Counted from the stretch's first letter, positions 7,108 to 22,606 are shown. The stretch is DNA of 40,406 bases from Gammaproteobacteria bacterium (GCA_003233075.1 QIKQ01000062.1:1-40406), one strand, 5' to 3'. Translations and numbers: made by a program. The notes: generated by a model from the letters alone, not told the origin.

Positions 7108-8643
7108 TTATCCTTGCTGCTTATCGACTTGCTTCTCAGCTTGTTCGTCGACTTCTTCATCAGCAAACCAATGCGCTCTAGCACTCATAATTATTTTTGC
7201 GGCTTTTTCATCACCTATTTTTTCTATTTCTTGCAACTCATCTACAGCCAGCTCGGCAAGATCATCTCGCGTTATTATATTTTTACTGGCTAATTTATAC
7301 GCTAAATCTTCAGTGACACCTTCAACTCCAAGTAAGTCTTCCTGCGGCTTCTTGTCACCCAAAGATTCTTCATCAACTATCATGCGCGTTAACAATACAT
7401 CCCGCGCTCTGCCGCGTAGCTCTTCAACGATATCTTCATCAAATTCATCAATTTCCAAAAGCTCTGATGTCGGCACGTAGGCGACTTCTTCTACTGTCGA
7501 AAATCCTTCTTGTGCTAAAATGCCAGCCACTTCTTCATCGACAGCCAAGGCTTCCTTAAACATCATTTGGACTTTTTCAATTTCGGCTTCATTCTTTTCT
7601 TCAGCCTGAGCGTCCGTCATTACATTGAGTTCCCAACCAGTTAAATCACTCGCTAATTTTACGTTCTGCCCACCCTTACCAATGGCTTGTGAAAGTTGAT
7701 CCTCAGATACTGCAACGTCCATACTGTGCTTATCTTCATCTACCACAATTGATAATACTTCCGCAGGAGACATCGCATTTATAACAAACTGCGCAGCATT
7801 TTCATCGTGCAAAATTATATCAACACGTTCGCCACCCAATTCATTTGATACAGTTTGCACTCGCGAGCCGCGCATTCCGACGCAAGCCCCAATTGGATCA
7901 ATTCGAGGGTCATTGGATTTAACCGCAATTTTTGCTCTTAAACCTGGGTCTCTTGACGCTGCAACTATTTCTATTAGACCTTGACCAACTTCAGGTACTT
8001 CGAGATTAAATAACTCGAGAAGTAACTCAGGTGCAGTACGACTTACAAATAATTGCGGACCGCGTTGCTCAGAACGAACATCATACAAATAGCCTCGAAC
8101 TCGATCACCCGGCTTTAATGCCTCACGTGGAATTAAGTCTTCACGCATAATGGCTGCTTCCGCATTGGACCCTAAGTCAATAAATATATTGCCTCGCTCC
8201 ACACGTTTGACCACACCAGAAACTAAATTGCCTTTCTTTTCTTGAAACAGTTCAACTATCTGTGCCCGTTCAGCTTCTCGTACTTTTTGCACAATAACTT
8301 GTTTAGCAGTTTGCGCTGCTATTCTGCCGAAAACTGCAGACTCCATATCTTCTTCAACGAATTCCCCAACTTGTACATCAGGCTGATCTAGTTGTGCTGC
8401 ACTTTGACTAATTTGTTTTAAAGGAAATTCTTGTTCTTCATCGTCATCCACTACCGCCCAACGACGAAATGTATCATAACCACCTGTTTCTCGATCAATC
8501 GAAACTCGAACTTCGATATCAATGCCCTGTTTTTTCTTAGCAGCAGACGCCAACGCCGCTTCCATTGCTTGAAAAATAACGTCGCGATCGACACCTTTCT
8601 CATTGGAAACAGCATCTACAACTAACAGTATTTCTTTATTCAT
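7108..8643 (-). CDS. nusA: Transcription termination/antitermination factor NusA
   Basis: 511 aa. S1 and KH regions ([24 protein letters not shown]) and a C-terminal acidic repeat region. Confidence 0.97.
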
Positions 8644-8694
8644 GCTCTCAGTGCCTCTAATCCTGATTGTGCAACAACTTTACTATTCCGTAGC

Positions 8695-8829
8695 TTAAGG
8701 ACACCTCTAATTGTGTCTATTTGCACGCTGGCGGCGTTGTCGAACTTTTTAAAATGCGGGGTCGCGCAGCGATAAACTGCGCTTTTAAAAAGCAGCGCAC
8801 AAATACCCCAATTTTTGAGGTGCCCTTAA
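8695..8829. repeat. MITE-like repeat family B, copy 1 (rimP-nusA spacer)
   Basis: Near-identical to 22890-23050 apart from indels. Imperfect terminal inverted repeats of about 35 nt (ggacacctctaattgtgtctatttgcacgctgg / ccagcgcacaaataccccaatttttgaggtgccc). TTAA on both flanks. Internal hairpin gcgcag-cgataaa-ctgcgc followed by tttt on the plus strand. Confidence 0.8.
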
Positions 8830-8838
8830 TATAAGTCT

Positions 8839-9291
8839 CTAATCTATAGGGACTAAACGTGCTTGCTGAATGTCCGCCAAGGGTAAATCATAAACTTGCT
8901 TATCAACCTCAATCTCTACCCTGTTATCTATTACCGCAAGTAACTTACCCTTAAAATTGCGTCTACCTTCAAATGCAATTAGAGTTTTAATGCGTACGTC
9001 TCTGCCAATAAATTCTTCATAGTGCTTTTTATCAAATAAGGGTCTGTCCAAGCCCGGTGAGGATACTTCGAGTGTATACCGACCGTTAATCGGATCCTCT
9101 ACGTCTAAAACTGCACTTAATTGCTCACTTACTATTTGACAATCATTTAAATTAATTCCTTTTTTGGAATCAATGTATATTCGCAATAAGCTATTTTTAT
9201 TTCTAGCTTGATAGTCTACCCCTATCATCGTGTATCCAAGCCCGCTTACCGTACTTTCAATTATCAATTTTAAATCAGCTTGGCTAGGCAT
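8839..9291 (-). CDS. rimP: Ribosome maturation factor RimP
   Basis: 150 aa, YTLEVSSPGLDRPL motif, position between tRNA-fMet and nusA. Confidence 0.93.
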   Translation of the reverse strand: MPSQADLKLIIESTVSGLGYTMIGVDYQARNKNSLLRIYIDSKKGINLNDCQIVSEQLSAVLDVEDPINGRYTLEVSSPGLDRPLFDKKHYEEFIGRDVRIKTLIAFEGRRNFKGKLLAVIDNRVEIEVDKQVYDLPLADIQQARLVPID

Positions 9292-9380
9292 TTTATTTCT
9301 GAACTTTCCTTAAACTCTTAAATTTCTCACTACTCAAATAAATAATCTTCTGTTAACTTATTTTTCTACAGTCTAGAACC

Positions 9381-9408
9381 AAAAAGTGGGCCTGCGGCCC
9401 ACTTTTTA
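9381..9408 (-). terminator. Intrinsic terminator/attenuator between tRNA-fMet and rimP
   Basis: aaaaa-gtgggcc-tgc-ggcccac-ttttt hairpin. Same position as the partial terminator after metY in the E. coli metY-rimP-nusA leader. Confidence 0.7.
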
Positions 9409-9522
9409 CTTATATTCATGTCTGGACTCTATTATAACCCCTAGTAGCAAATTTCGCCAACTTTTAGCTTAAATGAAAGCCTAAAAAAGCCCCATGTAGG
9501 AGCTTCTTCAAATGGAGCTAAT

Positions 9523-9599
9523 TGGTAGCGGGGACAGGATTTGAACCTGTGACCTTCGGGTTATGAGCCCGACGAGCTGCCAGACTGCTCCACCCCGCA
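9523..9599 (-). tRNA. metY: Initiator tRNA-fMet (CAT)
   Basis: The reverse complement reads TGCGGGGTGGAGCAGTCTGGCAGCTCGTCGGGCTCATAACCCGAAGGTCACAGGTTCAAATCCTGTCCCCGCTACCA. It has the CAU anticodon, three consecutive G:C pairs in the anticodon stem, A11:U24, an unpaired 1:72 position and an encoded CCA. Confidence 0.93.
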
Positions 9600-9611
9600 T
9601 CAGGCTTGCGA

Positions 9612-9640
9612 ATATTACCTAGACAATACTATTTAATCAA
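9612..9640 (-). promoter_or_regulatory. Candidate sigma70 promoter for tRNA-fMet/rimP operon
   Basis: On the minus strand: TTGATT (9640-9635), 17-nt spacer, TAATAT (9617-9612), then a GC-rich discriminator about 12 nt before the tRNA 5' end. Confidence 0.45.
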
Positions 9641-9800
9641 GTGATTACCTAAACAAAATCAATTCTTTATTCAATTAATTTCAAATCTTTGAAAGCAAGG
9701 CCAATATTTTCTCTATATTTGCTCATATTTCTAATTTTTGTCTTAATTCGAACCTAACTTGATTTCTTAGTAGATGATTGAACAAAATCAATTACTCACT

Positions 9801-9970
9801 CTAGCCCGCATTTCTCACAGCCCATCTACTGCAACGGCCCAATTGCATACTATGACTCGTTTTCACTCGGTCCAAGCGCTCGACATAGTGTCGACTATGC
9901 CTGCGCACTTCTCGGTCGTGAAAACCCTTGAACCGTCTCGCTACGAAGTGCTGTGAGAAAAGCGGGCTAG
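9801..9970. repeat. MITE-like repeat family A, full copy
   Basis: 21-nt terminal inverted repeats ctagcccgcatttctcacagc (9801-9821) and gctgtgagaaaagcgggctag (9950-9970), 20/21 complementary. The right 74 nt are identical to window bases 1-88 minus a 14-nt indel. Confidence 0.8.
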
Positions 9971-10137
9971 TCCTTAAGGCGTTTTTTTATAAAGTCAGGC
10001 GGGCAATCGGGGCTGTTTATAGCTTGTAGCAAGCTCACCTTTTTGGTGAGACCAGTAGCACTACTAATGACGTTAAATCACGAAGTTATGCCTTACAAAT
10101 GCGATCAACTAATGTGCTAGGTTTGACATTATTTCTT

Positions 10138-10162
10138 AAAAAAACGGGCGCATTTGCGCCCG
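10138..10162 (-). terminator. Rho-independent terminator of the DsrE-like gene
   Basis: cgggcgc-attt-gcgcccg stem-loop, followed on the minus strand by a 7-T run, 27 nt after the stop codon. Confidence 0.8.
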
Positions 10163-10188
10163 CCTTAGGTTGGATATTCTAACTAAGC

Positions 10189-10659
10189 TTAAGGCTTAAC
10201 GTAACTATATCCACGTTGCTGTAAATCTGCGACTCGTGCTACACCAGAAGGTACTACCGTTGCATTCAAATTGATTTTATTTTTATCAATTTTTTTACCA
10301 CGAATTGTATTTGCACAAATTTCAAATTTAACACCGCGATTTGCTAAAGTTTGAATGGTGGACTCGAAAGACCGACCTCGCTTGTCTTGGCTACCATCCA
10401 CAAGCGTAAACGCACCGCTGCTGTGAGTAACAATAATAAGATTAATATTTTTATCCCCTAAAGCATTTAAGTGATTTTTAACATTACGTAGGGTTCCAAA
10501 TGCCTTATTGATATCATTCAAGTGATACAAAACAGATTGAACTTTAAAGCCATTATTTGCTTTTTTAAGGCCTTTGTAATTATTGCCACCACAGCCGACT
10601 AAAACCAAAGTTAGCAATAAGATAAAACCGAAAGAAAAAATTGTTGTACTAGCCTTCAT
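10189..10659 (-). CDS. DsrE/DsrF-like family lipoprotein (COG1416-type)
   Basis: 156 aa. Signal peptide with lipobox LVGC. Core HLNALGDKNINLIIVTHSSGAF...FEICANT...VVPSGVARVADLQQRGYSYVKP resembles the DsrE-related family as I recall it. Strong GGAGG RBS. Confidence 0.7.
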   Translation of the reverse strand: MKASTTIFSFGFILLLTLVLVGCGGNNYKGLKKANNGFKVQSVLYHLNDINKAFGTLRNVKNHLNALGDKNINLIIVTHSSGAFTLVDGSQDKRGRSFESTIQTLANRGVKFEICANTIRGKKIDKNKINLNATVVPSGVARVADLQQRGYSYVKP

Positions 10660-10718
10660 TTACTAATTCCTCCAACTGTTAGGAAGTTGTGTAGGTTACT
10701 GCTGTTAGCCTTCACAGG

Positions 10719-10735
10719 TGCAAGTTGTATTCCAG
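10719..10735 (-). promoter_or_regulatory. Sigma54-type -24/-12 promoter candidate upstream of the DsrE-like gene
   Basis: The minus strand reads CTGGAATACAACTTGCA: GG-N10-GC spacing with TGG and TTGCA matching the TGGCAC-N5-TTGCW consensus. It lies about 60 nt upstream of the ATG. Confidence 0.45.
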
Positions 10736-10833
10736 ACCCCCTCGCTACAAGATAAGGCGAATTAAATCAAAGTATTAGAGAGTATTCTTGTACATTCCTA
10801 TACTAAGATAAGCTAATTACTATATAGATAGTT

Positions 10834-10846
10834 CTGCAATATGCAG
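10834..10846. promoter_or_regulatory. Perfect palindrome, candidate enhancer-binding (UAS) site
   Basis: ctgcaatatgcag lies about 100 nt upstream of the -24 element, the usual distance for bacterial enhancer-binding protein sites. Confidence 0.25.
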
Positions 10847-11067
10847 TATAACTTTCTCGCAGCATGGTGTAAATTGCAAATCACATTATGTAAGCTTATT
10901 AATATAACTTATTCTGATTATTATCAATTACTTTATTTGTTTTTCTCGAATTTAAAATGAAGTATTACCGAATCTGATACAAAATTGTCAACAATTAAGA
11001 ATTGAAAGCTTACCAGCATCATTAGAATAATTCTAAATTAAAATTAGCTTACAGGACCTTTGACTAG

Positions 11068-12423
11068 TTAACTAACTTCATCTTGCCTTTTTAATTTACG
11101 CCACAAGGTGGTTTTGTCGATCTGAAGAACTCGTGCCGCTTTTGACCGATTGCCATCTGAGTGCAATAGGACATGATCAATATAACGCCTTTCAAGTTCC
11201 TGTAAAGACAAAAAGTGATCATTTGGAAATACAAATTGCTTATCATTATTTTTATTAAGGTCAGTAATATTCTCAGGCCATTGCATCATTTCATCATCTG
11301 CCAATATGACACTGCGCTCGATTGCATTTCTCAGCTCGCGGACATTACCAGGCCATTCTGCGTCCATCAGTCGTCGCATAGACGCCGAATCAAAACCGCT
11401 AATTTTACGCTTGTAATGATTACTAAACTCGATAACAAACGCATCTATTAAAGCTGGAATATCTTCTCTTCTTTCACTCAGCGCTGGAACATGAATATTA
11501 ACGACATTCAATCGATGATAAAAATCGTGTCTAAATGTTCCCTCTTCCACCATTTTTTCTAAATCTCTATTACTAGCAGCAATCACTCTTAAATCAATTT
11601 CAATTGGATCGGTGCTGCCAACTCTTGTCACAACTTGACTTTCTGTCGCTCGCATTAATTTCATCTGCATAACATCTGAAATATTACTAATTTCATCTAA
11701 AAAAAGAGTACCTCCACTTGCCTGCTCCATTAGGCCTTTTTTCCTTTGAATCGCACCCGTAAAAGCACCTTTTTCATGTCCAAATAATTCACTTTCTAAC
11801 AATGATTCTGTTAATGCTCCACAATCAATCACAATAAATGGTTTGTTTTTGCAAGGACTGTATTCATGCAAGGCCCTTGCTACTAACTCTTTTCCAGTAC
11901 CCGATTCGCCATTGATAATAACGTGGCAGCTAACATTTGAAATTTTTTCAATTTTATTAAATAAAGATTCCATTGCGGCACTATGACCAATCATGCCAAA
12001 TTGATCACGGTGTTCGTGAATTTGTTGTTTCAATAAACTATTTTCATCGCGTAAACGCGCAGACTCTAAATTACGATCAATAATTATTTTTAACTCTTCA
12101 AAGTCGAAAGGTTTTTTAATGAAATCAGTGGCACCAAGTTTCATCGCTTCCACGGCATTTTCGACAGAACTATAGCCAGTCATTACCAGAAAGGGTACCG
12201 TTGGATCAATGAGTCTAACTGCCTTTAATAACTCAAATCCAGTCATGCCAGGCATTCTTAAATCACTGACAATTAACTGTGCGTTATGCAATTCGAACTC
12301 GCGCAAACACTCCTCAGGCGACTGAAACACACTGCATTCAATATTATGATTATTGCAATTTCTTTCCATCACCGAGCAGGTGACCGGATCATCATCAACA
12401 AACAAAATTTTCGTTTTATTCAT
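11068..12423 (-). CDS. Sigma54-dependent response regulator (NtrC family)
   Basis: REC domain (ILFVDDD...SDLRMPGMTG...KP). AAA+ domain with GESGTGKE Walker A and the sigma54-contact GAFTGA motif. C-terminal Fis-type HTH (NRSKAARVLQIDKTTLWRKLKR). Start set to ATG 12423; the track start at 12438 is TTG. Confidence 0.93.
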   Translation of the reverse strand: MNKTKILFVDDDPVTCSVMERNCNNHNIECSVFQSPEECLREFELHNAQLIVSDLRMPGMTGFELLKAVRLIDPTVPFLVMTGYSSVENAVEAMKLGATDFIKKPFDFEELKIIIDRNLESARLRDENSLLKQQIHEHRDQFGMIGHSAAMESLFNKIEKISNVSCHVIINGESGTGKELVARALHEYSPCKNKPFIVIDCGALTESLLESELFGHEKGAFTGAIQRKKGLMEQASGGTLFLDEISNISDVMQMKLMRATESQVVTRVGSTDPIEIDLRVIAASNRDLEKMVEEGTFRHDFYHRLNVVNIHVPALSERREDIPALIDAFVIEFSNHYKRKISGFDSASMRRLMDAEWPGNVRELRNAIERSVILADDEMMQWPENITDLNKNNDKQFVFPNDHFLSLQELERRYIDHVLLHSDGNRSKAARVLQIDKTTLWRKLKRQDEVS

Positions 12424-12467
12424 AAAGCTACTCGTCAAAGCACTGCAATTCGTTTTAATGCTATAGT

Positions 12468-14465: not shown

Positions 14466-14628
14466 AACTTTGCAATAAATATTAAAATAACCCTGGTAAA
14501 GATAGAGTTATATGAAAAAGATAAGCTGCATAAACTTAAATATTACTAAAGTTAATCTTTCGACAGATACTCCCGTTGCAGCCGTTACAGTCGTCATAGT
14601 CCAATACAAATCCATAATCGAGGCCTAT

Positions 14629-15024
14629 ATGACTAGAAATATATTTAAATTTAGTATTCAAATGTTATTATTACTTGTCTTAACTTTAAGTTTAAGCGCT
14701 TGTGAAGATGATTTTGTCCGCTCAGATAGAAGCGTACATCACGATAATTATTATCATTATCACTATTATCCCGACATTCGCGTTTACTATGATACGCGTC
14801 GTGGTTTCTATTTTTACTATACCAATACCGGCTGGACCAAATCTCGCTATCCGCCAAAACGTTTCCACTTGCGCCGACATAGTTATCAAAAACTAAGAAT
14901 ACGTCATGCCAACCCTTACTTACGGCACGGCCGATCTAATAAGCGATCTAAGCGCCATCGAAAACACCGCGGGCATCGTAATGACAATTACGACCGTCGA
15001 CGCCACGGTGGAGGGTATCAGTAA
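14629..15024 (+). CDS. Small basic His/Arg/Tyr-rich lipoprotein, function unknown
   Basis: GAGG RBS 7 nt before ATG 14629. Signal peptide plus lipobox LSAC. The mature part has YYHYHYYPDIRVYYDTRRGFYFYYTNTGW and an RHRKHRGHR tail. The track ORF start at 14512 lacks a signal-peptide context. Confidence 0.7.
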   Translation: MTRNIFKFSIQMLLLLVLTLSLSACEDDFVRSDRSVHHDNYYHYHYYPDIRVYYDTRRGFYFYYTNTGWTKSRYPPKRFHLRRHSYQKLRIRHANPYLRHGRSNKRSKRHRKHRGHRNDNYDRRRHGGGYQ

Positions 15025-15029
15025 TTAAT

Positions 15030-15063
15030 GAGAGCGCAGTGAAATCTATCTCGCCGCGCTCTC
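15030..15063 (+). terminator. Possible weak terminator hairpin after the lipoprotein gene
   Basis: gagagcgc ... gcgctctc, an 8-bp GC-rich stem with an 18-nt loop, followed by actctcttt. Poor U-tract. Confidence 0.3.
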
Positions 15064-15184
15064 ACTCTCTTTAGGCCACCTCTAAAACTTAACTAAGTAA
15101 TATAGACCAAAATAATTTTCTTTATTTTTTCTTTTTGCTCTTACATAATAAGCACATTAATAAAGTAATTGGAAAAATACGACA

Positions 15185-18100
15185 TTGAAGCCTTATGCAG
15201 CATCCGGCTCTAAATCCGGTCAAGCTAAAAAACAATCTGCGAATGAAGCTCGCGCGAAACTTTACTTAAGAACTAAACTAGCTTGGCTTAGTGGATACCC
15301 CTGTGGAGAAAATAAGTGGTTAAGCATTTCATCCGACCGAAACCCAATAAACCCATTAATCATTGATTCGAAATTAATTAGTAGCACTCAATATGCATTA
15401 AATAAAGTAATTCTTGATTTCCCTAGAGCTTTACCTCGTATAATTAATAACATTCCTCGGTGGCAAGCCGAAACTAAAAAATTATTAGAATTAGTCAAAC
15501 TGAACATTCTCAATAGCAGCGATAAAAATATTAGTAATTTATTAGATACAGATTATACGCCTTATTCTAAATCAGCCTGCCAGCTAGCTCGTTCAATAAT
15601 AAAGAATAACAAGTCTTTGTTGCCACTTATAAAATCTTACTCTTGGTTTTTTTATTTGGATTCAGAACAACTCGGGAAAATATTGCTCTGGACACAAGAA
15701 AATAAAATAGAAATTTGCAATATTATTAAGCTTAATGATCAGCAAACATCTCACAAAATCATTTTGAATCTTTGGATATTGGGTAAACTCAGCAATATCA
15801 AACAAACGAAATCCATATTATTTTTATTATCGAATGAAGCACTCTATGATTTTCCAACAAATAATGTTCGGCACTATTTAGAAAGAATAGTTTCCATTTG
15901 CGAATCTGCGAACGCCAATGCCAATTTAGCCAAGGAACCTAAACCTGTCTTTATCAAGAACTTAACACAATGGCTTTTCGAACTAAAAGAACAAGATAGG
16001 AACGCTATTAAAAGAGTTTTAGGTTTATTCAATCGATTCAATTGGGCGAAGTTTGCAAACGATTGGACTCAATATTGGCAAGCTATTGAACCGATAATTA
16101 CCAATGCAAAAACATCAATTGTTACAAATCGCAAGAAAAACAAAACCATTCAAACTTACCCACTGTCACTCTCTAATACAATTAGTGATGCCCTAAGTCA
16201 ACTACCAATCGAATTTAAGAGTGATTTTCTATTTCGGATAAGCTATTTCTCTGCTTCTGATAATTCAAAACATTATCAGGTCTTAAATCTAATTCCAATA
16301 AATCTCTCTTCATTACAAAAAGAGCATTATTTACTCTTTTTAATGACATTAATTTACGATAAAGAAACTAAATTAATTTCTGTTTATTTACATTATTGCC
16401 AAGAACTTAAATCAACTTTCAATAATAAGCGCAATGTTAAATATGCATTTAATTACATCAACTGCAATAAAAAACACAGTAGCATTACAATCACTTACGG
16501 TAATTATTATTCAAACCAACATATTAATATCATTAGTATTTTGAAACGAAAATCGAATATTAATCAGTATTTCAATATTCTTATGTCTCACTGTCAAATT
16601 AAAACACTTAAGCATATGACTGAGGTAGATTTCACTTATTTGGCTCTATTATGCTCCATAATTTCTGATTCAAAAATAATCACAACAGTTTTTGAGCAAA
16701 CAAAAACTAAATTAAGCAGCGATTACGCCATTGATATTAAAATTATCGTGACCGCTATCAAGCTTTGTGGTGAAAACCACCCCCAACTCGCTAAGTTAAT
16801 AGTACGCCTCGAAACAGATTGCCTAGAATCATGGCAGCAGCTCGATAATCTCAACTTAATTTCTAATTACACTAATAAAATTGATTTAAGAGATGAATTT
16901 CTAGAGTATATTTCTGTCTCTAGTAATACCGCAATCGATGAACTAGCTCAATTATGTCGTTTTTGTAAAATTACGACTCGATTTGTTCCCCTTGCAATTA
17001 AACCTAACTTAAAAACGCATACCCCTAAATGGATAAAAGAGTACCCAATAGAAATTCAAGATTTACTTAAGAAATTTACATCCTTAGGCAAACACGCAAA
17101 ACTCATTGCTTTAAAAATTACTCATAAATATATACCAAACAAAAAAGCGCTCGCCCTCGAAGCTGAAACAATAAATAGGAAATTAAGTCTACTTTTGGCT
17201 AATTCGGAACACAGCCAAGTTAAAAAAATGACCGCACGCCTAAACAATATCGAAAAATATATTAACAAAGCTACTTCATTAAACGCGAATCAAACTAAAA
17301 AGTTAGTTAGAAATCTCGAAACTCGTTTGCTTAAAATAATTTTTGAAGATTGGCATGTTAGTCTAAATGATAAATTACAAGCCTATCTGAATAATACTTA
17401 TAATACGAATAACGAATTTGACACGAAAATACGTTCCCAACTTGTCTTATTATTGCCTTCGCTTAAAACACTCACACCTGCTATTCAGCAATTGGCTCAC
17501 AAAGTCATCAAAAGACGTTTATTAGATCCGCCATGGGATATGCGTGAAATGAGTGCCAATAAGACCTTTATCGATGCTTTAGTATATAAAGGTATTAATA
17601 TGACTCCTTGGTTAGATGGTACTAAAACTCTGAATTTTAATTTAGATAAAACCCCGTGCCAACTATCATTCGAGAATGACCCCTTAGAGATATTTCTAAT
17701 GGGCAAGCATTTTAATACCTGTCTCAGCCCAAATGAGTTTAATTACTTTTCCGTTTTCGTTAATGCCGCAGATATCAATAAAAGAGTACTCTATGCCCGA
17801 TCTAACGGTGGACGCGTCATTGCTCGCATGCTGCTAGGACTCTCGGATCAAGGTGGGCTAATAGGTTTTCATGCCTACTCACATCTTCTTCCAAGTGAAT
17901 TCGAGGATCAGGCAAAGTCTTTCATCAATAGCCTTGCGCAAGAAATGAATACAATTGTATTACCACACGCAAGCATTAGCTCGCTCACTGTAAAAGAGTG
18001 GTACGATGATGGACCAATAGACCTTAGCGAAAAATTTAGCGAGCTTTATCAAAATAGTTTTAAGACAAAACTTTTATCCTGCGACCTGGAAAAAGTTATA

Positions 18101-18622
18101 GATGTATTTTTAGAAGTCCTTAAGCCCCTTGAAATAAATGAGTTAACTTTGAACATCATACTGCATCTTAATGTATTTGATTTTCGTCCCGAGTTAATAT
18201 TACCTTTTTTAGATTTTACTAAAGCAAATCAATTAAACATACGTGACCTTACTCGAGTATTTGATTTAAGCCTCTTAGCAGATAGTATTGAACTAAGTTA
18301 TTCGCTACTTGGATCACAATATATTCAAGCTTGTTTTAGTTATTTTAATCAACATAATTACCTTTATGACGACTCAATATCCCATCTAGCAAAGATTGCC
18401 CCTAGCCGAGCATTAAAGCTACTGCGCATATCACGTTACCACGGAGTAAATCGCTGGGATCAAGAATATGATTTCGAGAGATTAGAAGCGGCAATCAATG
18501 CCAATATAATTTTAGGCAGAAAAAACCAATCGACGCTGCTACTTAAAACTTTACAGAAAGCCTGGCCTGAAATAGATAATAATTATTATCAAAACCTGGC
18601 GCGACGAATCTTGAAACTATAA
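15185..18622 (+). CDS. 1145-aa orphan protein, Asn/Lys/Ile/Leu-rich, probably largely alpha-helical, no recognisable motif
   Basis: An uninterrupted 3.4-kb ORF in DNA of about 30 percent GC, where stop codons are frequent. TTG start 21 nt after an in-frame TAA; first in-frame ATG only at codon 387. No signal peptide, TM segment, Walker, HExxH or other catalytic motif seen. Confidence 0.8.
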   Translation: MKPYAASGSKSGQAKKQSANEARAKLYLRTKLAWLSGYPCGENKWLSISSDRNPINPLIIDSKLISSTQYALNKVILDFPRALPRIINNIPRWQAETKKLLELVKLNILNSSDKNISNLLDTDYTPYSKSACQLARSIIKNNKSLLPLIKSYSWFFYLDSEQLGKILLWTQENKIEICNIIKLNDQQTSHKIILNLWILGKLSNIKQTKSILFLLSNEALYDFPTNNVRHYLERIVSICESANANANLAKEPKPVFIKNLTQWLFELKEQDRNAIKRVLGLFNRFNWAKFANDWTQYWQAIEPIITNAKTSIVTNRKKNKTIQTYPLSLSNTISDALSQLPIEFKSDFLFRISYFSASDNSKHYQVLNLIPINLSSLQKEHYLLFLMTLIYDKETKLISVYLHYCQELKSTFNNKRNVKYAFNYINCNKKHSSITITYGNYYSNQHINIISILKRKSNINQYFNILMSHCQIKTLKHMTEVDFTYLALLCSIISDSKIITTVFEQTKTKLSSDYAIDIKIIVTAIKLCGENHPQLAKLIVRLETDCLESWQQLDNLNLISNYTNKIDLRDEFLEYISVSSNTAIDELAQLCRFCKITTRFVPLAIKPNLKTHTPKWIKEYPIEIQDLLKKFTSLGKHAKLIALKITHKYIPNKKALALEAETINRKLSLLLANSEHSQVKKMTARLNNIEKYINKATSLNANQTKKLVRNLETRLLKIIFEDWHVSLNDKLQAYLNNTYNTNNEFDTKIRSQLVLLLPSLKTLTPAIQQLAHKVIKRRLLDPPWDMREMSANKTFIDALVYKGINMTPWLDGTKTLNFNLDKTPCQLSFENDPLEIFLMGKHFNTCLSPNEFNYFSVFVNAADINKRVLYARSNGGRVIARMLLGLSDQGGLIGFHAYSHLLPSEFEDQAKSFINSLAQEMNTIVLPHASISSLTVKEWYDDGPIDLSEKFSELYQNSFKTKLLSCDLEKVIDVFLEVLKPLEINELTLNIILHLNVFDFRPELILPFLDFTKANQLNIRDLTRVFDLSLLADSIELSYSLLGSQYIQACFSYFNQHNYLYDDSISHLAKIAPSRALKLLRISRYHGVNRWDQEYDFERLEAAINANIILGRKNQSTLLLKTLQKAWPEIDNNYYQNLARRILKL

Positions 18623-18899
18623 CGCTGTGCTAGATTTAGGTGAATGGCTAGCGAACGGCGTATTGAATGTGGATTTATAAAATATTATGTTTAGCTATCG
18701 GGAGTCCTAATTTGTTGCGTCATGCAGTTGTCAATTTTACCGAGGCAATCCTAAGGAGACATGGTCGAGGACTATTTGAATACTACTTAGCGAGAAAAGC
18801 CGACGACAAGTAAGTCTTCTTATTTTAACAATGTCTATCCAACTATTTCTGGAGTTAATGATAGGCACTTACACATAAATATTTACAGTCTCGTTTGCA

Positions 18900-18921
18900 A
18901 ATATAAATGCAGCGATTTAGA
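18900..18921. repeat. Left arm of a 22-bp perfect inverted repeat
   Basis: aatataaatgcagcgatttaga is the exact reverse complement of 20388-20409. Weaker similarity extends about 12 nt outward and 24 nt inward. Confidence 0.85.
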
Positions 18922-19176
18922 ATAAATAAGCCGTGACAATCGCGTAATAGTACAATCGCTTTCATCTCAATTTATTTTGTTATTTGAATTTTAGGTTTTA
19001 TGAACGAAAAACACGTGAATCCGGAAGCACAGTAGAGTGAAAGATCTAAATAACATTAATCTACAACAGTGATAATTTCTTTCAACTTTTGACACCGCAT
19101 GTATGAAATATACAACCCAGCAAGCAGTGGTCACGTTTGCTCATCCGTATGACTGTCGAGAGCACATAAAGCCTGC

Positions 19177-19222
19177 AAAAAAAACGCTAGCTATGACGAT
19201 CATTAAAATCGTCGTAGCTAGC
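19177..19222 (-). terminator. Rho-independent terminator of the PEP-CTERM gene
   Basis: 15-bp stem gctagctatgacgat / atcgtcgtagctagc (one mismatch), 7-nt loop, followed on the minus strand by an 8-T run. Confidence 0.8.
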
Positions 19223-19312
19223 CTTGATTTTGGACTCTAATTTTAAAATTTTAAAAACTAAAGTCATTAAAGCTGGACATGGTAACAAATTTCGATACCA
19301 AATCTTAGACCT

Positions 19313-19867
19313 TTAGCCTTTAATACGTCTTCTACCAAATGCTCCCAGTAGCAACAGACCAAAACCAAACAACAAGATTGTTGATGGCTCTGGAATTGCC
19401 GCAACGTCATAACTCAATCCAGAAATTTGTACGAAACCACCAGCTTCGCGCCATGTTAAGTACGAAATACCTGTGCCTGTTAAAGTTGTAGTTCCTATAC
19501 CAACTCCATTGCTGAAACTATCAAGTAAATTATCCGCCGCATCGTATACATCGATGTAAATAGTGCCAGTAATCGCCCACCATTGCACATCCATTGAATT
19601 AGTTGTCACGCCACCCAGCAAGTCAACACGAGCAATATTTGTTGCACCTACTGGTGCGACAGACAAACCCATTTGATCAAACGTATCGCGCGAATCAGAA
19701 TACCAATATGCATTCGATATGCCGAGACCAAAACTATTCCATTGATTTGTGACGAGATCCGAATTACTAATACCAGGAACTTCTGTGTTATCAAAATTAA
19801 TAGTTACGGCTTGCGCCATGCCTGCAAAAGCAAATAGCAAGACTACGCTACAAAGTATTTTTTTCAT
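19313..19867 (-). CDS. PEP-CTERM sorting-domain secreted protein
   Basis: Signal peptide ...FAGMAQA. C-terminus IPEPSTILLFGFGLLLLGAFGRRRIKG, giving the PEP motif, a TM helix and an Arg cluster. GAGGA RBS. Confidence 0.85.
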   Translation of the reverse strand: MKKILCSVVLLFAFAGMAQAVTINFDNTEVPGISNSDLVTNQWNSFGLGISNAYWYSDSRDTFDQMGLSVAPVGATNIARVDLLGGVTTNSMDVQWWAITGTIYIDVYDAADNLLDSFSNGVGIGTTTLTGTGISYLTWREAGGFVQISGLSYDVAAIPEPSTILLFGFGLLLLGAFGRRRIKG

Positions 19868-20768: not shown

Positions 20769-21142
20769 ACCAGTGGCATTTCTCTATTTTCGGAGCCCCC
20801 CCCCAGGAGGTAATGATGCGTCTGCATTAGTGATTGAAATCATTTTTCTTCCGCTCGGGCAAACAGTGACTTGATGAAAAGTAAAAATGGCTATCGTTAT
20901 TCGCTGTAGATATAACTTTATACCGTCTTGAAAGAGAAAAATTCAGATATATATACTTTAATTGTTGGATTAAAAATACTAGGTATGAGCACAAATTAGC
21001 TGTGTCTAATCTCCTGTATAGGTTGCACCAAATTGCTAGATGCATTAGTATGATCATTAAATAATCACTATAGAATTTAAGCTGCTAACAATTAATTATA
21101 ATTAGAATATCAAGATTGCTACACAAACAAAATCTAAAGAAA

Positions 21143-21721
21143 ATGGAAGTAAAGAAAATCAAAATAAAAACTAAAAAAAATATGCACCACAAATCATTTT
21201 TTAGCTCGAAATTAAATTATTTCTTAGAATTTATATTCGACTTTATACTATTATTTTCTTTATTAGCTTATACCATATTAAAATTTGAATTTACTGGTAT
21301 AGAAATTGTAATTTCAATATTTGCTGGTGCGCTTATATGGACTCTAGTCGAGTATTTATTCCATTATTACATTTTTCATAAAAGCAACTTTCTCGTCTTT
21401 AGAAAGGGCCACGCTAAGCATCACAACGAACCTAAAGGATTTGATTCATTGCCGTTCTTGTTTGTACCGCTATTTGTATTTTTACCCATTTTTGCAATGC
21501 TTAGCTTAATTTTGCCTTTTTCATTGTCCTTATTAGTGACAAGCATAGTTATAGTCGGTTACATATATTATGGACTTTTTCATTTTACAATTCACCATAT
21601 TGATATAAACAATGTTGTCTTTATTAAGTTAAGAAATCATCATGCGATGCATCACAAAAAACCAAGTACAAATTTTGGCGTAACTACCCCTTTATGGGAT
21701 ATTGTATTTAAAACACGTTAG
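21143..21721 (+). CDS. Fatty acid hydroxylase / sterol desaturase superfamily membrane protein
   Basis: His boxes FHYYIFH, HAKHH, HFTIHH and HHAMHH, then NFGVTTPLWDIVF. Four hydrophobic segments. Start uncertain: TTG 21116, ATG 21143 or ATG 21182. Confidence 0.72.
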   Translation: MEVKKIKIKTKKNMHHKSFFSSKLNYFLEFIFDFILLFSLLAYTILKFEFTGIEIVISIFAGALIWTLVEYLFHYYIFHKSNFLVFRKGHAKHHNEPKGFDSLPFLFVPLFVFLPIFAMLSLILPFSLSLLVTSIVIVGYIYYGLFHFTIHHIDINNVVFIKLRNHHAMHHKKPSTNFGVTTPLWDIVFKTR

Positions 21722-22606
21722 TTAACTATTTTCATTAATTTGTCTAAAAAGTAAATCTGCTACCTGCGCGAAATTATCTTCAAGTAAATAGTACTTGCCA
21801 GGGATTAAGCTTAATTTTTCAATACCTAATGTTTCAAGCGCTTTGCTTGCATATTTACTATGCGGTAATATTTTATCGGACTCGCCCCATATTAATTGTT
21901 TTGAAATATTTGTTGATTTAATTTTATTTATATCCAAGCCAAACAACATATTTTTCTTATTTAATTGTTGAAACATTGCGAAGAACTCAAGTCCTTTGTT
22001 ATCGAACTTAAGTAGGCGAATATAATTAGATAATTCAATTTTCTTAAAATGTAATTTATTTTCAATTCCATAACGATTCATGAGAATGCTAAATAAGAAA
22101 GGCGTAAACATCCTCATATAAACATGTCTAACATACGGCCAAGTAAATGGTTGAATAAACCAAGGCAAACTTGTTTCTGACTCCGAGGATAAGCTTGTAT
22201 TTAATATGCTTAACGATAATATTCGTTCTGGTATTTTATTTAATAAATTTAAACTCAGCTGAGCTCCGATGTCATGCCCTAGTATATGAAATTTCTCAAT
22301 TTGTAAACTATCGAGCAGTTTTAATATCCAAGTCGTGTAACCCTCAAGACTGTACTCAAAATACTCTGGCCGTTCACTGAGACCGGTGCCAGGTAAATCA
22401 AATACAACTGCCCTATAATTGTTTTTTTCGATCAAAGGGATTAAATTTCGAAAATAGTATGAACAACCTATTAAGCTAGGCAGACAGAGAACTGCTTCGC
22501 CCTCTCCAGCATCAATTACAAATGCATTTAAATCACCAACAGTCTCTGTAAATCCAGACTGGCAGTGGTAATCGAAATATTCATTATCAGCTAAATTAAA
22601 TATCAT
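21722..22606 (-). CDS. Alpha/beta hydrolase, Asp-nucleophile type (epoxide hydrolase / haloalkane dehalogenase-like)
   Basis: 294 aa. FDLPGTGLSERP followed by HILGHDIGAQ, where Asp occupies the nucleophile-elbow position, as in the GHDWGG family. Confidence 0.75.
   Translation of the reverse strand: MIFNLADNEYFDYHCQSGFTETVGDLNAFVIDAGEGEAVLCLPSLIGCSYYFRNLIPLIEKNNYRAVVFDLPGTGLSERPEYFEYSLEGYTTWILKLLDSLQIEKFHILGHDIGAQLSLNLLNKIPERILSLSILNTSLSSESETSLPWFIQPFTWPYVRHVYMRMFTPFLFSILMNRYGIENKLHFKKIELSNYIRLLKFDNKGLEFFAMFQQLNKKNMLFGLDINKIKSTNISKQLIWGESDKILPHSKYASKALETLGIEKLSLIPGKYYLLEDNFAQVADLLFRQINENS

Follow-up and report, generated by a model that had tools for sequence, protein, structure and literature searches.

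The window analysed here is a 40,406-nucleotide stretch from a Gammaproteobacteria bacterium (GCA_003233075.1, QIKQ01000062.1:1-40406), along which (1-40406) the gene order is infB-nusA-rimP-tRNA-Met, an accessory block, nuoN-A and tRNA-Leu. Within the block, after a small lipoprotein gene and divergent from a histidine kinase/sigma54 response regulator pair, lies the gene under study, an uninterrupted open reading frame (ORF) that encodes 1145 amino acids and is the longest in the window (Table 1). The gene is an intact, full-length and sequence-divergent member of a large, scattered and uncurated bacterial family. Its product is predicted, with high confidence, to be a cytoplasmic alpha-solenoid of ~60 helices in two arms around an alpha/beta domain of ~130 residues. 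An earlier reading of the sequence, here the original prediction, had described a real gene, the largest of the accessory segment, that encodes an orphan protein. The gene is indeed real, being a single intact ORF with co-linear homologues across the family, and it is not an orphan.

An exhaustive HMMER scan over 1.84 billion cluster representatives (clusters at 50% identity) returned 1,540 homologous representatives at E<=1e-3, 896 at E<=1e-10 and 414 at E<=1e-30. The homologues are mostly 1,090-1,180 aa long and 25-32% identical to the query, with ~28-32% the best identity of any relative, and several of them align across query residues ~15 to ~1,120 (15-1123). In a scan with one genome per species, relatives were found in 133 species. 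Myxococcota contribute many members, and others come, among further groups, from Planctomycetota, Acidobacteriota, Chloroflexota, Nitrospirales, Bdellovibrionales, Hyphomicrobiales, Rhodothermales and the marine Gammaproteobacteria (for example Arenicella, Pleionea, Marinicella, Kangiellaceae and Granulosicoccaceae). The homologues are widespread without conserved neighbours, which contradicts the orphan claim. Of the 90 positions with >=85% conservation among 80 aligned relatives, 78 are unchanged in the query and the 12 deviations are mostly conservative; all 17 invariant family residues are present.

Source records label the family members 'hypothetical protein'. Scans of the full protein and four sub-segments against Pfam, NCBIfam, PADLOC and PDB sequences gave noise only, in agreement with the original prediction that no motif could be recognised in the single sequence. 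No model of Pfam, NCBIfam, PADLOC or PHROGs matches any family member tested, eight full-length homologues contain no Pfam domain save a C-terminal leucine-rich repeat (LRR) array in one of them, and PDB profile searches with the full-length and domain alignments returned nothing significant. An early idea that the protein was of the DUF4132/MolR type was dropped, that family never having matched in any Pfam scan. Two relatives depart from the common gene structure. In a 1403-aa protein (P0106) the family match covers protein residues 496-899, and leucine-rich repeats at ~1113-1353 replace the C-terminal helical arm. In Nitrospirales bacterium NPIRA02 (L008) the family gene is read as two overlapping ORFs, 7842-9248 and 9155-11062 (whole 7842-11062), owing either to a frameshift that made it a pseudogene or to faulty assembly.

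The gene opens with a TTG codon 21 nt past an in-frame TAA. The first in-frame ATG is at codon 387, no GTG occurs in frame between the TTG and that codon, and the alternative starts before it are TTGs only, from codon 145 onward, all of which bears out the unusual start first described. In an alignment of 81 family sequences, 76 begin at this column with 'M-[KRQ]-P' (the query with 'MKP...'), which supports the TTG start. The G+C (GC) content of the ORF is 33.5%, higher than the ~30% first estimated, whereas the window as a whole has 38.1% and the nuo genes have 36.8-41.1%. At third codon positions (GC3) the ORF has 29.5%, the same as nusA, nuoG, nuoF and nuoD (29.5-30.3%), and its low GC therefore reflects amino-acid content and not foreign codon usage. 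The Asn-Lys-Ile bias reported earlier stands in part: N+K+I amount to 26.6% of the query, at the high end of the family (median 9.45%, range 3.9-29.3%), but the commonest residue is Leu (14.1-14.2%), which is constant at ~14% across the family (median 13.7%). The 'extreme bias', with its richness in Asn, Lys and Ile, is therefore the compositional drift of a tolerant helical scaffold in a host whose DNA is AT-rich. As the original prediction had it, the 1145-aa protein has neither a hydrophobic N-terminus nor a segment of transmembrane grade (highest Kyte-Doolittle mean over 19 residues 1.48), and its sequence shows no internal repeat.

We built an AlphaFold2 model of the full-length protein with the 81-sequence alignment. 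The mean predicted local distance difference test score (pLDDT) is 89 and the predicted template modelling score (pTM) 0.74; confidence is low for residues 1-7 and 426-443 and nowhere else. The helix and beta-meander at the N-terminus carry the near-invariant residues W34, G37, P39 and W45. The long solenoid arm that follows gave weak matches to alphaRep/HEAT-like and designed helical repeats in profile and Foldseek searches. We consider the family membership and the architecture of the protein, taken together, to be very probable.

Table 1. Features of the gene, its predicted product and its surroundings in the window
Feature	Position	Strand	Remarks
Complete coding sequence	15185..18622	+	1145 aa plus stop; ORF listing, translation
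TTG start codon	15185..15187	+	In-frame TAA upstream at 15161-15163
Weak GGA Shine-Dalgarno-like triplet	15171-15173	+	5' of the TTG start
Predicted basic N-terminal helix (residues 10-31), then small beta-meander (37-59)	15212..15361	+	AlphaFold2
Predicted N-terminal alpha-solenoid arm (residues 62-811), ~40 helices	15368..17617	+	AlphaFold2, pLDDT mostly >85
Low-confidence linker (residues 426-443)	16460-16513	+	Only one in the N-terminal arm; AlphaFold2
Predicted conserved alpha/beta domain (residues ~815-946)	17627..18022	+	Conservation peak, domain model
Signature motif (residues 832-900)	17678..17884	+	Invariant/near-invariant alignment columns
C846 codon	17720-17722	+	Invariant cysteine
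Second block, W939-Y-D-D942-G	17999-18013	+	Just downstream of signature motif
Predicted C-terminal helical arm (residues 952-1144)	18038..18616	+	AlphaFold2
DsrE-like gene	10189-10659	-	Follows sigma54 response regulator
Sigma54-like -24/-12 element, TGGAAT-N5-TTGCA	10719-10734	-	~60 nt upstream of DsrE-like gene
Sigma54 response regulator	11068-12438		Two-component gene near the ORF
Small lipoprotein gene	14512-15024	+	Internal ATG 14629, lipoprotein signal MTRNIFKFSIQMLLLLVLTLSLSAC
Inverted repeat, GAGAGCGC / GCGCTCTC	15030..15063	+	Just past lipoprotein stop; read from sequence
Strong 15-bp hairpin, T-rich tail	19186..19222	.	560 nt past ORF stop; terminator scan
PEP-CTERM protein gene	19313-19867	-	Convergent with the ORF

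The family alignment is most conserved over residues 761-960, with its peak at 841-880. Residues 832-899, singled out in the original prediction as the one domain-like stretch, thus coincide with the conservation peak of the family and lie inside the alpha/beta domain. The family signature reads DPLEIFxMGxHFxTCLSPGxFNFFSVFANAADINKRVLYARDxxGxVVGRCLLALTxxGxxLxFHPYCHD ... WYDDGP. The invariant residues are N792, M839, G840, F843, T845, C846, L847, N853, S856, D863, N865, K866, R881, L883, Y898, W939 and D942 (17 in all). T845-C846 falls in the a1-a2 loop of the domain (a, helix; b, strand), D863-x-N865-K866 in the a2-b2 turn and R881 in b3, with the conserved Y898-x-H900 at the end of b4 and the W939-Y-D-D942-G block further on.

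For the domain itself, residues 786-960 were cut out, 62 sequences were realigned and the segment was modelled alone (pLDDT 89.7, pTM 0.84). The predicted order of elements is b0-b1-a1-a2-b2-b3-b4-a3-b5-...-b6. The core fold of the GNAT acetyltransferases is b1-a1-a2-b2-b3-b4-a3-b5-a4-b6, and the domain shares with them the topology b1-a1-a2-b2-b3-b4-a3-b5, with the caveat that a4 is not predicted and b5 and b6 are very short. A Foldseek comparison of the full-length model with the PDB gave no significant E-value, and GNATs recurred among the matches with probability up to 0.93 (NatD, YhbS, Gcn5, AAC(6'), SpeG and Eis). With the domain model all 50 of the 50 best matches were GNAT-fold proteins (template modelling (TM) score 0.35-0.48, best E 2e-3). 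The best was the histidine acetyltransferase 9en3 (E 2e-3, probability 1.00). Others were RimI 7n1l, NatD/Naa40 4u9w and 7kpu (TMq 0.42-0.47), YhbS 4rs2 (root mean square deviation 3.9 A over 119 columns), AAC(6')-Ih 4e8o, serotonin N-acetyltransferase, FemX, Gcn5/PCAF and VipF. In our reading of the alignment, the family 'WYDDG' block also stands at the place of the GNAT motif B 'Y-x-k-x-GF'. The predicted alpha/beta domain holds almost all family-invariant residues, and their clustering in space is assumed from the GNAT topology. Weak matches to Peptidase_M15 in 7 of the 62 domain sequences (best E 9e-4) were below threshold, had no other support and were treated as noise.

The domain is set apart from the GNAT superfamily by the invariant Cys in its a1-a2 loop and by its setting, mid-way in a solenoid of 1,100 residues, whereas a GNAT is a free enzyme of ~150 residues. 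In the NatA/B/C complexes a large helical-repeat auxiliary subunit wraps a small GNAT catalytic subunit, docked on the ribosome. By analogy with these eukaryotic and archaeal complexes, the family would combine a helical scaffold with a GNAT domain, here as parts of a single chain; the best structural matches of the domain include NatD and RimI. Unlike them, it has a solenoid with no sequence or fold match to Naa15, Naa25 or Naa35, and CoA binding by its domain is doubtful. A domain-profile search for other architectures that carry the domain found only fragments of the same family.

A second structural resemblance came from viral proteins. Among matches of the domain model in BFVD, phage acetyltransferases (one at E 3e-4) are interleaved with PcfJ-like proteins, whose annotated matches have E 9.8e-4 to 4e-3 and TMq 0.38-0.49 (Listeria phage LP-064, E 9.8e-4, TMq 0.49). 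A PcfJ profile was made from 15 C-termini, those of pcfJ of pCF10 and 14 diverse phage and plasmid homologues, and gave the motif 'EG..L.HCV...IvFlR...TlE...ivQ.rG..N'. In hhalign, PcfJ 'EG..L.HCV' lies in register with family 'MG.HF.TCL...VLYAR...' over ~128 columns. The domain thus shows both the fold similarity to PcfJ and a 'G-x5-C' element; the common '[EM]-G-x5-C' is followed by a strand ending in Arg, with His-Cys in PcfJ where the family has Thr-Cys. The PF14284 hidden Markov model matched none of the 62 domain sequences even at E<=1. PcfJ-like domains form the C-terminus of 450-830-aa proteins from mobile elements, namely the conjugative plasmids of Firmicutes and phages of the Herelleviridae, whereas the solenoid family is chromosomal and found mostly in Gram-negative and environmental phyla. 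A tblastn search of 72,556 plasmids and 50,697 phages turned up no copy of the family domain, while PcfJ itself matches 589 plasmids and 227 phages. On pCF10 (NC_006827; L084, 15874-17984) pcfJ overlaps, and is directly downstream of, a gene annotated as Cas9 inhibitor AcrIIA9 family, and the pairing recurs in many plasmids, including related Enterococcus and Listeria plasmids. This hints that PcfJ-like proteins belong to anti-defence regions. A literature search on PcfJ-like proteins and on the combination of a GNAT with a solenoid found nothing relevant.

A GNAT-like/PcfJ-like fold is therefore a well-supported prediction for the domain, and homology to either group is not demonstrated at the level of sequence. 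We do not file the family as a GNAT or PcfJ member, because the sequence-level membership tests failed. The family joins a known fold class, GNAT-like, to an undescribed architecture and signature.

The gene neighbourhoods of relatives bear on the role of the family. Across ~165 sampled contexts, including an independent metagenome sample, RtcB is the single neighbour that recurs, found within 4 kb of the family gene in nine (~5%), four of them also with PrfH. In Pleionea sediminis (L038) rtcB, prfH and the family gene follow on the same strand, with a 17-nt gap, and in a Methyloligellaceae genome (L039) the same three are on the same strand with a 4-nt overlap. The proteins of these two loci are not each other's closest relatives, and the linkage is therefore not confined to one subclade. 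A six-gene RNA-repair operon of unusual richness was seen in L099 (JGI 3300032373, contig Ga0316204_10000797, 218-8336), where RtcB, PrfH, RNA_ligase (PF09414), an AAA_33 kinase, a further RNA_ligase and the family gene lie on one strand with a final gap of 13 nt. Elsewhere the order is RtcB, RNase_T, a 146-aa ORF and the family gene (P0029), RtcB is divergent at ~1.9 kb (L108), or RtcB plus RtcR lie 3.7 kb downstream (L002). The independent metagenome sample added a locus with the family gene, RtcB and PrfH (L113) and two with RtcB nearby (L122 and L155).

The density of rtcB is ~4 genes per Mb of flanking DNA. For the background we estimate <=~0.4 per Mb, assuming one or two copies per 5-10 Mb genome. 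Set against this estimate, the association of the family with the RtcB repair system is statistically unlikely to arise by chance. Other translation-related neighbours are a YbaK-type aminoacyl-tRNA deacylase (L034), TrmK (L102) and YicC (L019). RtcB2-PrfH, first characterised in 2022 and published as a two-gene module (PMC9304027, PMC9223846), rescues ribosomes that have been cleaved by colicin E3 and other ribotoxins, and ligates them again (PMC9304027, PMC9223846, PMC13166195). The paper searched for a third partner mentions none. In at least four contexts family genes directly adjoin rtcB-prfH on the same strand, whereas most family members have neither gene nearby; this includes the gene studied here, as no rtcB or prfH occurs in the 40-kb window.

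Our best guess is that the protein would be a cytoplasmic scaffold-plus-enzyme that acts on RNA or the translation apparatus. The solenoid would dock a macromolecular partner, and the GNAT-like domain would bind or chemically modify it, probably not by classical acetyl-coenzyme A (acetyl-CoA) chemistry and possibly with the involvement of the invariant Cys846. The most likely partner would be damaged RNA or the ribosome/translation apparatus, because in several subclades members have RtcB as a recurrent neighbour, which is often accompanied by PrfH, further RNA ligases, a P-loop kinase or an RNase T-like exonuclease. We rate the whole of this explanation, a solenoid with a GNAT-like domain that binds or modifies RNA or a translation partner, at a little under an even prospect. 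That the predicted domain is catalytic is possible, and we lean towards doubting it. The link to RNA or ribosome repair is tentative and rather doubtful for the family, and more so for the stand-alone gene of the window. In a bolder form, the family would be an unrecognised component of the bacterial response to RNA and ribosome damage, in which a solenoid 'cradle' engages damaged subunits or RNAs alongside RtcB (with or without PrfH) and the divergent domain, with its invariant Cys, carries out a new modification or end recognition; this we consider quite unlikely.

Several observations weigh against the proposed scaffold-plus-enzyme. GNAT motif A, Q/R-x-x-G-x-G/A in the b4-a3 loop, binds the acetyl-CoA pyrophosphate, and it is absent here: the family loop is 'HPYCHDxxxGF' and that of the query 'HAYSHLLPSEFE', and the consensus 'FHPYCHDxxxGF' reads 'FHAYSHLLPSEFED' in the query, which lacks even the sole semi-conserved Gly. 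The a4 helix is not predicted in the full or the domain model. The TM-scores of the domain are all <0.5, and no PDB match reaches E<=1e-3. Comparison with a RimI profile by hhalign gave a probability of 0.6%, with a shallow RimI profile of sequences >82% identical, and comparison with the PcfJ profile gave 0.1-0.2% despite the co-linear alignment. None of the 62 domain sequences is matched by Pfam, NCBIfam or PHROGs, and no Acetyltransf_* model of Pfam matches them, the query or the eight full-length homologues even at E<=1. As for the neighbourhoods, RtcB linkage is seen in only ~5% of the sampled contexts and is missing from the window, and most neighbourhoods consist of unrelated housekeeping genes.

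Much of the same evidence could be read as that of a non-catalytic scaffold or pseudo-enzyme, in which the solenoid is an interaction platform and the GNAT-like domain, having lost acyl-CoA chemistry, is no more than a conserved plug with a structural or a binding role (its ligand being, for instance, a peptide, nucleotide or RNA end). The missing motif A and a4 helix and the want of any sequence-level GNAT signal are in keeping with this, as are the relative that swaps its C-terminal arm for LRRs, which are protein-interaction modules, and a pTM of 0.74, which suggests a rigid, closed architecture. However, the 17 positions invariant across phyla include the polar or nucleophilic residues T845, C846, D863, N865, K866, R881, Y898 and D942. 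Invariance of this kind is met more often at active sites than in purely structural cores, although binding sites may be conserved to the same degree, and we regard the pseudo-enzyme as unlikely, though by no means negligible. The structural matches to PcfJ-like phage proteins raise instead the prospect of a conflict or mobile-element-type protein (anti-defence, defence or effector) related to them. The shared G-x5-C spacing and the co-linear hhalign register agree with this, and so do the position of pcfJ beside an AcrIIA9-family gene on pCF10-type plasmids, the patchy phyletic distribution of the solenoid family and the fact that RtcB2-PrfH itself counters ribotoxins (PMC9223846). We nevertheless find it distinctly improbable, given that the sequence relationship to PcfJ is not significant, that none of the searched plasmids or phages holds a copy, that PADLOC gave noise only (Cas8b, E 0.08) and PHROGs no match, that signal peptide and transmembrane segment are lacking, that GC3 is native, and that the neighbours of relatives are ordinary chromosomal genes (yicC/gmk, zwf/pgl, fatty-acid oxidation). 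The secreted effector or conflict protein suggested in the original prediction finds little support in these results, the PcfJ-like resemblance being the only point in favour of that idea.

The remaining alternatives concern the gene and its locus. The original prediction suggested a local regulated module made up of the ORF, the lipoprotein gene upstream of it and the divergent operon for a histidine kinase and a sigma54 response regulator. These genes are adjacent in the window, and in a neighbourhood sample of 80 genome loci, with 944 flanking ORFs called and clustered, histidine kinases lie within 8 kb at 14/80 loci. But histidine kinases are ubiquitous and generic, like the Ser/Thr kinases found at 10/80, and their position and orientation vary among loci. 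The lipoprotein gene has no homologue among the flanking ORFs of any of the 80 loci, the 42 tightly linked same-strand neighbours include only two homologous pairs, and the contexts annotated with Pfam differ widely, with zwf/pgl, yicC/gmk, GST, fatty-acid oxidation genes and peptidases among their contents. Neither the lipoprotein gene nor the sigma54 two-component genes accompany the family gene in any of the ~165 related contexts. A promoter pattern search found no sigma54 -24/-12 element between 14450 and 15185; a good candidate sits instead upstream of the DsrE-like gene, which the two-component system is likelier to control than the big ORF. An inverted repeat also lies between lipoprotein gene and ORF. 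The proposed module thus fails on co-occurrence and on promoter, and we take it to be very improbable; the gene stands alone in the window. Finally, a true orphan, a chance ORF or a decaying pseudogene might have been supposed from the word-indexed protein search, which returned only the query itself, and from the metagenome collections, in which no close relatives of the query were found. The self-only result is a limit of that search method and no evidence of orphan status. With 1,540 homologous clusters, full-length co-linearity, all 17 of 17 invariant residues kept and a confident fold prediction, such an origin is already refuted and almost certainly wrong.

At least 1,500 clusters (50% identity) in many phyla are annotated neither in Pfam or NCBIfam nor in the literature. 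Large families without annotation are common, and this one is marked by a sharp motif, a confident model and the association with RtcB. The model and the sharply defined invariant motif make the family directly testable. If true, a recurrent third partner would change the reading of RtcB2-PrfH cassettes. The structural bridge suggests that the family and the function-unknown PcfJ-like domain may both belong to the GNAT-like fold class, a hypothesis for both, and the damage-response reading, if true, would give a first functional handle on the PcfJ-like domain of phages and plasmids. For the window itself the outcome is more limited: the gene is neither an orphan nor foreign DNA, and it does not belong to the neighbouring regulatory module.

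Some further features of the locus may be noted. No close relatives of the contig were found, nine of its housekeeping proteins having no named partner in clusters at 90% identity. Over the whole window the sigma54-like pattern occurs 14 times against 10.6 expected, which is not above chance. The lipoprotein probably starts at the internal ATG, which gives it a classical lipoprotein signal, and the mature form is an unusual His/Tyr/Arg-rich basic peptide (HHDNYYHYHYYPD...RHRKHRGHRNDNYDRRRHGGGYQ) with no Pfam match. The inverted repeat beyond it could form a stem-loop between the lipoprotein gene and the ORF. For want of a T-run it is no canonical terminator, and it was not listed in the terminator scan. 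The terminator-like element nearest to the ORF is the hairpin downstream, probably shared with the convergent PEP-CTERM gene, and the spacer in which it lies (18623-19312, 690 nt) has neither an ORF of >=50 aa nor an Rfam match. GC is at its lowest in the window (28.6%) over 21116-22606, just upstream of nuoN, where a fatty-acid hydroxylase-family gene (+) and an alpha/beta-hydrolase gene (-) adjoin.

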